From Eledone cirrhosa (lineage: Eukaryota): a stretch of DNA of 64,000 bases. Shown piece after piece: positions 44,616 through 63,105 of this stretch. The notes beneath the pieces are model-generated. The model was not told the DNA's origin. It ran no database searches and saw only the letters and a program-made list of their open reading frames with translations. Every line of letters begins with the position of its first letter. Position 1 is the stretch's first letter. Location of the stretch: positions 110,980,001-111,044,000 of the forward strand of contig OZ024740.1 of assembly GCA_964016885.1 (NCBI GenBank), written 5' to 3'. The translations under genes were made by a program, and so were the position numbers.

Positions 44616-45006
44616 TATATTAATAAAAGGAATTTCAACTTTGTCTGATTTACTCGTTTTATTTACAATCCTTTAAAATTTATAATGATATTATAATGAA
44701 ATAGTATGGTAGAATATTAAATGTTAAGTGTTAATTGAACAAGTACTTTCATGCTTTCGCAATCTTCAGGTTCATAATGTGTGGTGACAGTCAAGTTTGC
44801 AATTTTCAACAGTTGAAAATTGCAAACTTGACTGTCACCACACATTATGAACCTGAAGATTGCGAAAGCATGAAAGTACTTGTTCAATTAACACTTAACA
44901 TTTAATATTCTACCATACTATTTCATTATAATATCATTATAAATTTTAAAGGATTGTAAATAAAACGAGTAAATCAGACAAAGTTGGAATTCCTTATATT
45001 AATATA
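44616..45006. mobile_element. Near-perfect palindrome (195-bp arms, 1-nt spacer) carrying a hammerhead in each arm; Penelope-like fold-back fragment
   Basis: Centre AATTTTCAAC-A-GTTGAAAATT at 44811; the arms differ at about 2 positions; abuts a (TA)n tract on the left. Confidence 0.85.
44848..44886 (+). ncRNA. Minimal type I hammerhead ribozyme (mirror copy on minus strand at 44736-44774)
   Basis: TGAAC-CTGAAGA-T TGC GAAA GCA T-GAAA-GTAC-TT-GTTCA: stem I TGAAC/GTTCA, intact core, stem II with GAAA loop, palindromic stem III GTAC, predicted cleavage after CUU. Confidence 0.8.
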
Positions 45007-45049
45007 ATCTTCTATACACAATCATACACACCCGTGTATATTTATCTCT

Positions 45050-47050
45050 CCCTCTCTCTCTATATATATATATATTTATGTGTGTATATATATATATATA
45101 TATATGTATATATATATATATATAAATATATATATATATATATATAAATATATATATATATATATATATATATATAATAGTGTGTGTGCATAGGTATGTA
45201 TTGTTATTTTATTATTGAAATCTTCTAGAGGGTGTGTTGGCATGCTGAATGACACCCCCCCCCCCCACACACACACACACACACAGACATATATATATAT
45301 ATATAAATGTGTGTAGAAAGAGGGATTGAGGAAGGAGAAAAGTGAGGTAATCGTGGTGGTGGGATGGTAGGTGAAGATGGGGTGCAGCTGCAATAAGTTT
45401 GTTAGACAAAGTATTGATATATACATATACATACATACAAACATATATATATATATATATCCACACACAGACACATACATAAACACACACATATACACAC
45501 ATATATATATACATATATATATATATGTGTGTGTGTGTTTGTTAGAGAAGGCATCGATGCTGAAATGAGATGTGTAATGAGTGAGCAGACATCATCTCTT
45601 ACTTTTCACGCCAGACAGTTTCTCTTTCGCTTCAATAGTCGTCTGCAAACATTCATTTACTCTACTCATACAACTAACTATCTGCCGGTCCTGCCTGCAT
45701 ATCGACATGCGTATGTGTGTATTGTACTGTATGTGTTTGTGCTTACACACACACACTCACACACACACACACACACACACACACACATATATATATATAT
45801 ATATATATATATATATATATATATATATATATATATATATGTGTGTGTGTATATATGTGTATATATATATGTATATATATATGTATGTACATATATATAT
45901 ATGTATATATATATGTATGTACATATATATATATATGTACATATATATATATGTATATATATATGTAAGTATATATGTATATATATATATATGTAAGTAT
46001 ATATATATATATGTATATATATGTAAGTATATATGTATATATATGTAAGTATATATATATATATATATGTATATATATGTTAGTATATATATATATATAT
46101 CTATATATATGTATGTATATATATACATATACGTACATATTTATATATATATATATATATATATATATATATATATATATATATATATATATACATATAT
46201 ATGTATACACACACACATGATCACACACACACACACACACACACACACACACACACATATATATATATATGTATATATATATTCGGGTATGCATATGCCA
46301 TCAAATATACAGACAGAAATATATGTGTGAGTGTGTGTGTAATGCATACACGTGTGCGTATATATGTGTATTTTGCATGATTCTACAGGTGTGTAGAATC
46401 ATGCAAAATACACATATATAGGTAGAGAGGTGTGTATATATTTGAATTTCTGTCTGTTGTCAAATGTTTGAATCAGGAGCAGGAAGGGGAGAATGGGTTG
46501 AGGGAAGAGTGTTTGCTCTATCACAGACGATCAACAGACGTCCGTTGACTAACGTGGAAATTCATTTGGTGTTGGCTGGACTCAGACAGTCGCCTCCCAA
46601 AACACTAAACTAGCTACATGCGTCTTTAAACACAAATACACGCATACATACATACATACACATTTAAACATGCATACACAATTTATAAACAAACACACAC
46701 ACACACATATTCCCATTTATACTTATATAGACGTGTATATATAAGTACACTTATATATACGTACGTGTATATATGTATATAGGCATCTATTTGTAATCTT
46801 TCTATCTATCTATCTATCTATTTATCTATCTGTCTATCTATCTAACTATTAAAAATATGTATTTATAAATATATATATATATATATACACATATTTACAT
46901 ATATATATATATATATTTATATATTTATATATACATATATATATATATAATCATATATATATGTAAATATATATATAAATAAATATATAAATATATATAT
47001 ATATATATATATATATATATATGAGAAAGCGAGAGAGAGAGAGAGCGAGA
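45050..47050. repeat. Cluster of compound (TA)n/(CA)n/(TG)n/(ATCT)n microsatellites
   Basis: Directly visible; the longest compound block is about 45745-46280. Confidence 0.95.
46359..46420. repeat. Perfect 29-bp inverted repeat with 4-nt spacer
   Basis: TATATATGTGTATTTTGCATGATTCTACA-GGTG-TGTAGAATCATGCAAAATACACATATATA. Confidence 0.9.
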
Positions 47051-59770: not shown

Positions 59771-62700
59771 TTCCCTTGCTTTTATCGAGAATCTAATTGT
59801 AATACGTGACGTATTCTATTCTATAGCGATTAGGTCTTCAAAATGTTTATTATAAACATACAGAATATTTTCGAATATTCTATGTCTATATTCACATATA
59901 TATCGCTATTTCAGAGCATTTATTCCAATTTCTAATTTCTGCCGGACCGGCAACCGCTCTTTCAAACCAGTTCCTGTACACAGCTAAGTATTCTATAAGT
60001 CTCTAGCTGTGTCATTCTCGATAAAAGCACTGGATATGTAGTCCTGATGATTTCTAACGAGAATGAAACGCGTAGATTACTTCCCTTGCTTTTATCGAGA
60101 ATCTAATTGTAATACGTGACGTATTCTATTCTATAGCGATTAGGTCTTCAAAATGTTTATTATAAACATACAGAATATTTTCGAATATTCTATGTCTATA
60201 TTCACATATATATCGCTATTTCAGAGCATTTATTCCAATTTCTAATTTCTGCCGGACCGGCAACCGCTCTTTCAAACCAGTTCCTGTACACAGCTAAGTA
60301 TTCTATAAGTCTCTAGCTGTGTCATTCTCGATAAAAGCACTGGATATGTAGTCCTGATGATTTCTAACGAGAATGAAACGCGTAGATTACTTCCCTTGCT
60401 TTTATCGAGAATCTAATTGTAATACGTGACGTATTCTATTCTATAGCGATTAGGTCTTCAAAATGTTTATTATAAACATACAGAATATTTTCGAATATTC
60501 TATGTCTATATTCACATATATATCGCTATTTCAGAGCATTTATTCCAATTTCTAATTTCTGCCGGACCGGCAACCGCTCTTTCAAACCAGTTCCTGTACA
60601 CAGCTAAGTATTCTATAAGTCTCTAGCTGTGTCATTCTCGATAAAAGCACTGGATATGTAGTCCTGATGATTTCTAACGAGAATGAAACGCGTAGATTAC
60701 TTCCCTTGCTTTTATCGAGAATCTAATTGTAATACGTGACGTATTCTATTCTATAGCGATTAGGTCTTCAAAATGTTTATTATAAACATACAGAATATTT
60801 TCGAATATTCTATGTCTATATTCACATATATATCGCTATTTCAGAGCATTTATTCCAATTTCTAATTTCTGCCGGACCGGCAACCGCTCTTTCAAACCAG
60901 TTCCTGTACACAGCTAAGTATTCTATAAGTCTCTAGCTGTGTCATTCTCGATAAAAGCACTGGATATGTAGTCCTGATGATTTCTAACGAGAATGAAACG
61001 CGTAGATTACTTCCCTTGCTTTTATCGAGAATCTAATTGTAATACGTGACGTATTCTATTCTATAGCGATTAGGTCTTCAAAATGTTTATTATAAACATA
61101 CAGAATATTTTCGAATATTCTATGTCTATATTCACATATATATCGCTATTTCAGAGCATTTATTCCAATTTCTAATTTCTGCCGGACCGGCAACCGCTCT
61201 TTCAAACCAGTTCCTGTACACAGCTAAGTATTCTATAAGTCTCTAGCTGTGTCATTCTCGATAAAAGCACTGGATATGTAGTCCTGATGATTTCTAACGA
61301 GAATGAAACGCGTAGATTACTTCCCTTGCTTTTATCGAGAATCTAATTGTAATACGTGACGTATTCTATTCTATAGCGATTAGGTCTTCAAAATGTTTAT
61401 TATAAACATACAGAATATTTTCGAATATTCTATGTCTATATTCACATATATATCGCTATTTCAGAGCATTTATTCCAATTTCTAATTTCTGCCGGACCGG
61501 CAACCGCTCTTTCAAACCAGTTCCTGTACACAGCTAAGTATTCTATAAGTCTCTAGCTGTGTCATTCTCGATAAAAGCACTGGATATGTAGTCCTGATGA
61601 TTTCTAACGAGAATGAAACGCGTAGATTACTTCCCTTGCTTTTATCGAGAATCTAATTGTAATACGTGACGTATTCTATTCTATAGCGATTAGGTCTTCA
61701 AAATGTTTATTATAAACATACAGAATATTTTCGAATATTCTATGTCTATATTCACATATATATCGCTATTTCAGAGCATTTATTCCAATTTCTAATTTCT
61801 GCCGGACCGGCAACCGCTCTTTCAAACCAGTTCCTGTACACAGCTAAGTATTCTATAAGTCTCTAGCTGTGTCATTCTCGATAAAAGCACTGGATATGTA
61901 GTCCTGATGATTTCTAACGAGAATGAAACGCGTAGATTACTTCCCTTGCTTTTATCGAGAATCTAATTGTAATACGTGACGTATTCTATTCTATAGCGAT
62001 TAGGTCTTCAAAATGTTTATTATAAACATACAGAATATTTTCGAATATTCTATGTCTATATTCACATATATATCGCTATTTCAGAGCATTTATTCCAATT
62101 TCTAATTTCTGCCGGACCGGCAACCGCTCTTTCAAACCAGTTCCTGTACACAGCTAAGTATTCTATAAGTCTCTAGCTGTGTCATTCTCGATAAAAGCAC
62201 TGGATATGTAGTCCTGATGATTTCTAACGAGAATGAAACGCGTAGATTACTTCCCTTGCTTTTATCGAGAATCTAATTGTAATACGTGACGTATTCTATT
62301 CTATAGCGATTAGGTCTTCAAAATGTTTATTATAAACATACAGAATATTTTCGAATATTCTATGTCTATATTCACATATATATCGCTATTTCAGAGCATT
62401 TATTCCAATTTCTAATTTCTGCCGGACCGGCAACCGCTCTTTCAAACCAGTTCCTGTACACAGCTAAGTATTCTATAAGTCTCTAGCTGTGTCATTCTCG
62501 ATAAAAGCACTGGATATGTAGTCCTGATGATTTCTAACGAGAATGAAACGCGTAGATTACTTCCCTTGCTTTTATCGAGAATCTAATTGTAATACGTGAC
62601 GTATTCTATTCTATAGCGATTAGGTCTTCAAAATGTTTATTATAAACATACAGAATATTTTCGAATATTCTATGTCTATATTCACATATATATCGCTATT

Positions 62701-63028
62701 TCAGAGCATTTATTCCAATTTCTAATTTCTGCCGGACCGGCAACCGCTCTTTCAAACCAGTTCCTGTACACAGCTAAGTATTCTATAAGTCTCTAGCTGT
62801 GTCATTCTCGATAAAAGCACTGGATATGTAGTCCTGATGATTTCTAACGAGAATGAAACGCGTAGATTACTTCCCTTGCTTTTATCGAGAATCTAATTGT
62901 AATACGTGACGTATTCTATTCTATAGCGATTAGGTCTTCAAAATGTTTATTATAAACATACAGAATATTTTCGAATATTCTATGTCTATATTCACATATA
63001 TATCGCTATTTCAGAGCATTTATTCCAA

Positions 63029-63105
63029 TATATATATATATATATATATATATGTGTGTGTGTGTGTGTGTGTGTGTGTGTGTGTGTGTGTGTGTGTGTG
63101 TGTGT
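63029..63105. repeat. (TA)n(TG)n microsatellite
   Basis: Directly visible. Confidence 0.95.

Follow-up and report, generated by a model that had tools for sequence, protein, structure and literature searches.

Paired arms with two fixed 3' ends in hammerhead-bearing Penelope-like element stubs and a tandem retrozyme of Eledone cirrhosa suggest twin priming at TA microsatellites

In contig OZ024740.1 of the Eledone cirrhosa genome (assembly GCA_964016885.1), five dissimilar hammerhead ribozyme motifs lie within 19 kb, each next to a (TA)n tract. The stretch analysed here spans 64,000 nucleotides (nt; positions 110,980,001 to 111,044,000 of the forward strand) and is referred to as the window. 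A first-pass annotation, made from the letters of the window alone, interpreted the motifs as five independent, small non-coding ribozyme retroelements that integrate by fold-back of their own complementary DNA (cDNA). The locus raises the question of what these five elements, here named E1 to E5, are, and how insertions made of two inverted arms come to lie between TA tracts. The answer proposed here is that E1 to E4 are ends of Penelope-like elements (PLEs), that E5 is a retrozyme, and that all were likely inserted by a Penelope-type enzyme with reverse transcriptase (RT) and GIY-YIG domains, through twin priming at a (TA)n break and from two fixed sites on the RNA.

The whole window was scanned with a descriptor comprising the core, stems I and II, a palindromic or hairpin stem III and the U-H motif. 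Type I hammerhead cores were found on the plus strand in E1 to E4 and in 11 units of the E5 array, which also has one minus-strand core, and mirror cores lie on the minus strand in E1 and E2 (Table 1). The five hammerheads returned were exactly those named previously, with coordinates that had referred to stem I starts, and the self-complementary stem III loops reported for E1 to E5 (GTAC, CAATTG, TATATA, TATATA and CGCG, respectively) are all present. When the 19.6 kb outside the array was shuffled locally 300 times by dinucleotides, the descriptor gave 0.003 matches per shuffle (one in total), none of them with a palindromic loop. When the E1, E4 and E5 references were compared with this region using blastn, each matched only its own element, in agreement with the claim that the elements share no sequence outside the core. 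Two results point the other way. An Rfam scan returned 123 matches at E ≤ 5, none of them to a hammerhead family, and the folding z-scores of E1 to E5 (-0.40, -0.80, -2.10, 0.05 and -0.27) are unremarkable relative to shuffles in four of the five. Both are expected of minimal motifs without a stable stem III, and we conclude that the five motifs are real. Two further elements were also found, the two-armed E6 and a decayed copy of a seventh family.

A repeat search placed the inverted arms at 44616–44810 and 44812–45006 in E1, at 49124–49312 and 49333–49521 in E2, and at 59153–59626 against the array in E5. The arm of E3 is short and was read from the sequence, and no inverted arm was found for E4 in the window. 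Four elements therefore do have the inverted duplication that had been described, but it is both outer ends, not one, that lie at TA tracts.

By sequence, E1 to E4 are pseudo-long terminal repeat (pLTR) stubs of protein-coding PLEs located elsewhere in the same genome, one of Neptune type (E1) and three of Hydra type (E2 to E4). Full elements were located as places with two hammerheads on the same strand 4.1–4.2 kb apart; loci fetched from the assembly are given L-numbers. The E1 parent is a 4.2-kb PLE found in L111 to L114, and in L111 the direct hammerheads are 4202 nt apart, so that a pLTR hammerhead is present at both ends. L113 contains an intact 775 amino acid (aa) frame for an RT with a C-terminal GIY-YIG endonuclease (EN), overlapped by an upstream frame of 476 aa. 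The 775-aa frame matched PF00078 (E 2.9e-06; 27.6 bits, under the 29.6 cut-off) and PF01541 (E 3.3e-06), and its protein has 471 homologues at E ≤ 1e-50 that carry the same domains. The CX4CxxC linker, DKG and GxKF in its translation agree with the motifs of the Neptune clade (CX2-5CxxC, DKG, GxKF), and E1 is assigned by these motifs as Neptune-type (or Nematis). The E4 parent is a 4.1-kb PLE bounded by E4 at both ends in L126 and L127, with direct hammerheads 4097 nt apart in L126. It encodes an RT and an endonuclease with a CxCx5C linker, CxxC/CxH around E and N, and RWK, and is frameshifted in the copies seen. The full-length PLEs (RT plus GIY-YIG) with matching pLTRs that the first-pass annotation had proposed to look for thus exist for E1 and E4.

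E2 lies about 0.7 kb past a Hydra-type RT/EN frame in L148 and L150, and E3 about 1.2 kb past collinear remnants of such a frame in L132 and L143. Their parents are broken copies, with no full copy carrying two pLTRs among the fetched loci. The CxCX5C linker of the Hydra clade is found in E2, E3 and E4, as are CxxC/CxH (for E3, in the L132 frame) and the (TA)n target. Pfam recognised none of the Hydra-type frames, one weak Dam match being disregarded, so the assignment of RT and GIY-YIG to E2 and E3 rests on their likeness to E4 and on motifs. Hydra elements are generally under 3 kb with one frame, which the frameshifted 4097-nt unit of E4 is not, and as that trait is described as general only, E4 is called Hydra-type. 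None of E1 to E4 forms a tandem non-coding unit independent of a coding element, and the inverted 5'-truncated copy and optional tail of PLEs that encode an endonuclease (EN+ PLEs) are present in all five families. The E1 protein gave no tblastn match in the window, and neither this search nor the reading frames of the window revealed an autonomous RT, as had been noted. Elsewhere, a third type of PLE with its own hammerhead is present at L116:2172-4674; we take it, from its motifs, to be Penelope/Poseidon-like.

E5 is assigned as a young, non-coding tandem non-LTR retrozyme, the only one among the five elements. Each of its tandem units contains a type I hammerhead and no coding frame, as in non-LTR retrozymes, and no stop-to-stop frame of 70 aa was found inside the array. 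The earlier description of small non-coding ribozyme retroelements holds for E5 and fails for E1 to E4, which are terminal pieces of PLEs with RT and GIY-YIG; the retroelement origin itself is supported. E5 arrays are dispersed, and a handful of sites distinguish them from the unit of the window. The first 100 matches had about 10 units per locus, which for 4033 matches in the genome suggests roughly 400 insertions. Ten of 11 E5 loci are two-armed, with every junction at a different phase and either 1–4 nt shared or 2–4 nt added. Older tandem relatives (68–78%) with the same two ends were found in L162, L129, L200, L094, L059 and L065. By eye, several of these carry a changed core (U3/A8 type) that the descriptor misses, and the density estimate given below is therefore a floor. 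As E5 arrays carry the full integration footprint of a PLE (two arms, two fixed ends and a TA target), they appear to have been inserted as ready-made arrays and not to have expanded locally. The 310-bp unit is also present without difference in sequence runs X1 and X2, which carry other organism codes (A and B). No RNA run is listed among those containing the unit; six are of unspecified kind, and the four examined gave contigs only. Another tandem hammerhead family, with a period of about 469 bp and the stem III loop CTAG, was seen in L104, L124 and L138.

Positions with a sign, such as -73 or +129, are counted from the predicted hammerhead cut. Each family has two fixed 3' ends, here called short and tailed, and both are joined to (TA)n. 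These lie at +129 and +190 in E1, at +59 and about +190–220 in E2, at +56 and about +150–151 in E3, at +56 and +159 in E4, and at +128–139 and +163–170 in E5; the stretch between them is the 'tail' of the PLE literature. The loci used to examine pairing were chosen by pattern search, as the first listed places plus picked long copies, and are not a random set. Among 69 inverted pairs of E1 to E4, 59 combine a short with a tailed end, three are short and short, two were called tailed and tailed, and five were unclassified. In both tailed and tailed calls an arm had been wrongly matched with an internal pLTR, and these insertions in fact have one short and one tailed end. With the two-armed E5 loci, all 10 of which pair a short with a tailed end, the combination is found in 71 of 74 classifiable two-armed insertions, where a free choice of ends predicts about half.

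At the other end, where the arms meet, hot spots were counted by hand with duplicate loci dropped. In E1, 15 of 24 arms start at -75 to -62, about 30 nt past a TATA box, and in E4 13 of 22 start at -170 to -163. A TATA box lies 25–30 nt before the common start in E1, E2 and E3, and E4 has none. The stubs are therefore likely copies of the 5' pLTR of a transcript, extending from an RT start site to the start of transcription.

A second, rarer class of 5' ends lies at the predicted cut itself. It was sought in E1 with a pattern that forbids both normal bases before the cut, and controls were built in the same way at -10, +3 and +8. The cut-site pattern gave 30 matches, of which 25 are true truncations at 0 and five are mutations or core deletions. 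None of the seven matches at -10 is a true truncation. At +3 there were 20 matches, eight of them junctions whose partner arm ends exactly at 0, with at most six other truncations; the nine matches at +8 are a raw, uninspected count. In total, 33 E1 arms (25 plus the eight partners) start exactly at the predicted cleavage site. In nine of the 16 two-armed cut-site loci, the partner arm, which was not selected for, also ends between -2 and +4. From the cut end, copies jump to internal sites of the element in L167 and L182 and, twice alike, in L174/L175, and in L194 (positions 1531-1820; G000:C28, near 80.90 Mb) two E1 arms, each of them starting at the cut, flank 289 nt of 18S ribosomal RNA (rRNA). 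In E4, three loci have both arms at the cut. We consider the E1 ends at this site a likely footprint of hammerhead cutting in cells. L174/L175 (G000:C3, near 222.07 Mb) contain an 845-nt E1 tandem that starts at the cut site, with an identical junction twice, and that could have arisen from a circle or from repeated jumps on one RNA fragment. In L113 (G000:C1:21871400-21881300) two full E1 copies, joined at 0/+4 of the cut, form a palindrome of 8.8 kb, and the RT–EN frame is intact in at least one of them.

If twin priming is accepted, the ends at position 0 could still be due to stalling of the RT at a folded stem I, or to microhomology, and not to self-cleavage. The class is rare (tens among thousands), a short palindrome lies at +4 to +7, and the excess in E4 is weak, all of which would fit. 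However, stalling at stem I should place the ends about 5 nt more to the 3' side, and the ends are sharp at 0 with partners as varied as unrelated DNA, internal sites of the element and 18S rRNA. Several copies (L181, L190 and L191) jump from 0 across the ribozyme core to just upstream of it. Stalling or microhomology is therefore an unlikely cause.

The two arms meet at their 5' ends, where a few bases are shared or have been added, and small palindromes are found at many junctions. In an aligned test of 44 pairs, the two arms shared alleles absent from all other copies 27 times, where control means were near 0.03 per pair; this suggests one RNA or one donor for both arms, with gene conversion possible. 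Junction palindromes and shared rare alleles are also what would be expected if the PLEs formed head-to-head structures by self-priming on an antisense transcript, as proposed for rotifer Penelopes (PMC3846280). By itself, self-priming does not predict a short and a tailed end in 71 of 74 insertions, nor 5' ends at landmarks of the sense strand (the TATA-linked start and the hammerhead cut), nor sense-copied 18S rRNA at a junction, and we regard it as quite unlikely.

The lengths of the arms bear on the fold-back step proposed in the first-pass annotation. Either arm can be the longer. The short-end arm exceeds the tailed one in several loci, and in L111, L126, L127 and L128, all of non-tandem families, the tail-less arm is 2.8–4.5 kb and the tailed arm 0.2–0.9 kb. 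A folded-back copy cannot outgrow its template or gain a tail that the template lacks, so neither arm can be derived from the other in this way and two priming events on RNA are needed. The absence of an RT from the window, the near-perfect E1 palindrome with its 1-nt spacer, the non-coding nature of E5 and the arm lengths of its tandem, which are compatible with fold-back, would all suit five independent ribozyme retroelements of this kind. Against them, E1 to E4 run into PLE coding sequence elsewhere, and in L194 the foreign 18S segment separates the arms; such elements are very unlikely to be the explanation. There is next to no chance that the palindromes are artefacts of assembly, produced by fold-back chimeras among long reads, or that they reflect two independent insertions into the same TA tract. 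Palindromes and arrays of 100% identity do often cause trouble in assemblies, but the arms are asymmetric in a fixed way with no TA between them, and many such head-to-head junctions occur in contigs of the independent public run X3.

Genome copy numbers were estimated by pattern search over each hammerhead, allowing two mismatches for E1, one for E2, two for E3, three for E4 and none for E5. This gave 8682, 2111, 2670, 8548 and 4033 matches, respectively, and reversed controls gave none. In a spaced sample of thirty-two 10-kb stretches at round coordinates (320 kb in total), 20 hammerhead motifs were found in 10 stretches, and 10 shuffles gave one. Eighteen of the 20 motifs lie no more than 250 nt upstream of (TA)5, where the background is 19%. 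The sample scales to about 1.9 x 10^5 motifs per 3.0-Gb genome, an estimate with a wide error because the matches cluster. The predictions that the motifs adjoin TA and that the genome holds a very large number of them are thus upheld, with thousands of pattern matches per family and motifs in the order of 10^5. The 19 kb examined previously is denser than average (seven isolated motifs plus the array, where about 1.2 are expected), which is consistent with nesting in TA tracts, since E2 and E3 have a tract in common and E4, E6 and E5 are chained. In L093 an E4 copy directly adjoins an E5 array, as it does in the window, and elements nest in shared TA tracts. The fetched loci and the spaced sample also contain more than 10 further hammerhead families beside TA tracts, mostly with a palindromic or near-palindromic stem III; in one of them stem III is 4 bp long and its loop contains a palindrome.

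Under twin priming, the likely explanation, transcription from the pLTR would be followed by cleavage of the two strands of a (TA)n microsatellite, carried out by an RT/GIY-YIG protein that is likely dimeric. Reverse transcription would then proceed from both DNA ends, one cDNA beginning at each of the two fixed sites downstream of the hammerhead. The two arms would be two simultaneously primed cDNAs, probably of one RNA or of a dimer of like RNAs, and not a cDNA and its fold-back copy. These would stop at the RNA 5' end or earlier and join by microhomology. Priming in the 5' pLTR would stop at the transcript start and yield the abundant stubs, and priming in the 3' pLTR would yield long or full copies. 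Most templates would be uncut; in under about 1% of events the RNA would already have been cut by the hammerhead, and the cDNAs would stop at the cut. E5 would be copied in trans from an uncut multimer or circle, with the RT passing the ribozyme up to 14 times. In L1 twin priming the inverted segment is a non-overlapping part of one RNA, unlike the two arms here, which have their 3' sequence in common.

A more tentative extension, slightly less likely than not, is that Neptune-type, Hydra-type and retrozyme templates all obey one rule of a dimeric enzyme and two RNA sites, that the pLTR hammerhead cuts in germ-line cells, and that its palindromic stem III may pair two RNAs, both of them loaded and sometimes both cut in one particle, the genome keeping a large in vivo record of these events. 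The loading of two RNAs through the palindromic stem III is speculation. If the extension is true, repeated jumps from the cut end, as in the 845-nt tandem, would show the birth of tandem retrozyme-like arrays from a PLE.

Several results weigh against these proposals. Three E1 pairs are short and short, and the E4 hot spot has no TATA box. In three of the 16 E1 cut-site loci the partner arm reaches -73, so insertions cannot in general derive from one cut RNA. The cut-site excess in E4 is weak by count (12 true of 14 matches, compared with eight true of nine at +7), and none of 21 E5 arms starts at the cut. Shared alleles could come from gene conversion or a common donor, and in a fixed-window test, which was confounded by truncations and replaced by the aligned test, the arms were mutually closest in just 15 of 51 pairs. 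No partner PLE of E5 was found among the fetched loci, where alone it was sought and which gave the older tandem relatives. The spaced sample contained six E1 motifs where the pattern count of 8682 predicts about one, so pattern counts may be floors. Finally, in the study of the Poseidon element PAc, hammerhead mutants inserted with full activity and RNA reads that end at the cut were not found (PMC11167929).

The features of the window are listed in Table 1. The E5 arms overlap by 3 nt, and an intact hammerhead of the E6 family is present in L167. By eye, the broken reading frames at 42618-43352 resemble a mariner transposase.

Table 1. Hammerhead-bearing elements and other features of the window (positions are those of the 64,000-nt stretch)
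Feature	Position	Strand	Description
E1 short-end arm	44616..44810	-	Neptune-type PLE pLTR stub; core 44769; 3' end in TA tract 44534-44620
E1 tailed arm	44812..45045	+	Starts at -73 (likely transcription start); core 44853; predicted cut after 44881
E1 tailed arm tail	about 45007-45045	+	Followed by (CT)n and (TA)n
E2 tailed arm	48993..49312	-	Hydra-type PLE stub; core 49285; tail about 48993-49123; 3' end at TA tract near 48976-48992
E2 short-end arm	49333..49519	+	Core 49360; 82-nt stem II; predicted cut after 49460; ends at +59 in TA tract 49519-49553
E3 short-end arm	49554..49594	-	Truncated before hammerhead; TA tract common to E2
E3 tailed arm	49595..49853	+	Hydra-type PLE stub; core 49654; predicted cut after 49702; ends at about +151 at TA
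E4 single stub	58436..58658	+	Hydra-type PLE; starts at -169 hot spot; core 58560; predicted cut after 58604
E4 short end			Adjoins TA tract 58659-58765
E6	58761..59115		Two arms (58761-58874 and 58889-59002) plus tail; other hammerhead family, truncated inside stem II
E5 short-end arm	59161..59626	-	1.5 units of 310-bp retrozyme; core 59322; 3' end at phase 130 past cut site; TA tract 59116-59162
E5 tailed arm	59624..63029	+	11.0 identical 310-bp units, one hammerhead each; cores at 59734 + n*310; 3' end at phase 165; TA tract 63028-63053
Seventh hammerhead family, decayed copy	about 53515..53580	+	Adjoins TA tract
Satellite	1-41327		42-bp unit, about 993 copies
Broken reading frames	42618-43352
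Fold-back	46355-46424		Small, 33 bp, without hammerhead; TA/CA-rich stretch
Short interspersed nuclear element (SINE)-like repeat	50160-50560, 53330-53490, 56280-56520, 58240-58390		One repeat, several copies
Minisatellite	54541-54871		45-bp unit

The route by which PLEs insert in tandem and inverted arrangements and the role of their hammerheads are stated open questions (PMC8557442; PMC11167929). Sharp, testable predictions follow from the counts presented here: each insertion should have one short and one tailed end, stubs should stop where the transcript starts, and a rare class should begin where the ribozyme cuts. The same counts link a retrozyme to the PLE machinery through its integration footprint, beyond co-occurrence or homology. 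The intact young Neptune-type copy in L113 and the near-identical retrozyme family provide material for biochemistry, and for annotation, this 3-Gb genome holds on the order of 10^5 hammerhead-bearing PLE ends.

The elements belong to known kinds. The earlier suggestion of PLE-type, dimer-dependent hammerheads appears sound in that the motifs are of PLE type with a palindromic stem III. The system is not a new one, its architecture being that described for PLEs and retrozymes (PMC8557442, PMC4209133, PMC7229834). Hammerheads in pLTRs with a palindromic loop III, mostly as single truncated motifs or opposite-strand pairs, and their mass occurrence are in print (Cervera and de la Pena 2014, PMC4209133), as are inverted PLE copies, tails, TA targets and the octopus Hydra and Naiad families (Craig et al. 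2021, PMC8557442), pLTR promoters and the self-priming model (Arkhipova et al. 2013, PMC3846280), and retrozymes as PLE derivatives (PMC7229834; bioRxiv 10.64898/2026.07.22.740005). The pairing rule, twin priming for PLEs and genomic ends at the cut were not found in a literature search, which most subscription papers lay outside.

Like the EN+ PLEs with pLTR hammerheads (PMC4209133, PMC8557442, PMC3846280), E1 to E4 have an RT with a C-terminal GIY-YIG domain in their parents, a type I hammerhead with a palindromic loop III, occurrence mainly as lone truncated motifs or as pairs on opposite strands, an adjacent inverted 5'-truncated copy, a tail on one end, TATA (in E1 to E3) and initiator (Inr) elements in the pLTR and (TA)n targets. 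Their tails are longer, at about 60 nt in E1 and 95–160 nt in E2 to E4 compared with 30–40, and the available text of these sources mentions neither strict short and tailed pairing, nor a main class made up of start-site stubs, nor 5' ends at the cut. E2 to E4 share with the Hydra clade (PMC8557442 section 11, which includes Hydra-1_Obim) the CxCx5C linker, CxxC/CxH, RWK (E4), insertion at TA and a canonical hammerhead. E4, at 4.1 kb with long low-complexity inserts, exceeds the size of under 3 kb given there, and by eye the three hammerheads are unlike the listed Hydra-1_oBim motif. E1 resembles the Neptune (or Nematis) clade in its CX4CxxC linker, DKG, GxKF and an upstream frame that overlaps the RT frame.

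E5 resembles the animal non-LTR retrozymes (PMC7229834; bioRxiv 10.64898/2026.07.22.740005) in its non-coding tandem unit of about 300 bp with one type I hammerhead per unit, its dispersed arrays and the coexistence of PLEs. It differs in its two arms, two fixed ends and TA target, and the words 'inverted' and 'microsatellite' each have no occurrence in the available text of PMC7229834. The closest experimental counterpart is the protein of PAc (Frangieh et al. 2024, PMC11167929), for which a dimer is predicted. In vitro it cuts and extends both strands of an AT-rich target and begins RT at two sites, one on each side of the tail. That work leaves inverted copies unexplained and saw no cut-site ends, whereas the two RT start sites bounding the tail and the cutting and extension of both strands are like what the two fixed 3' ends of E1 to E5 suggest for the octopus elements.

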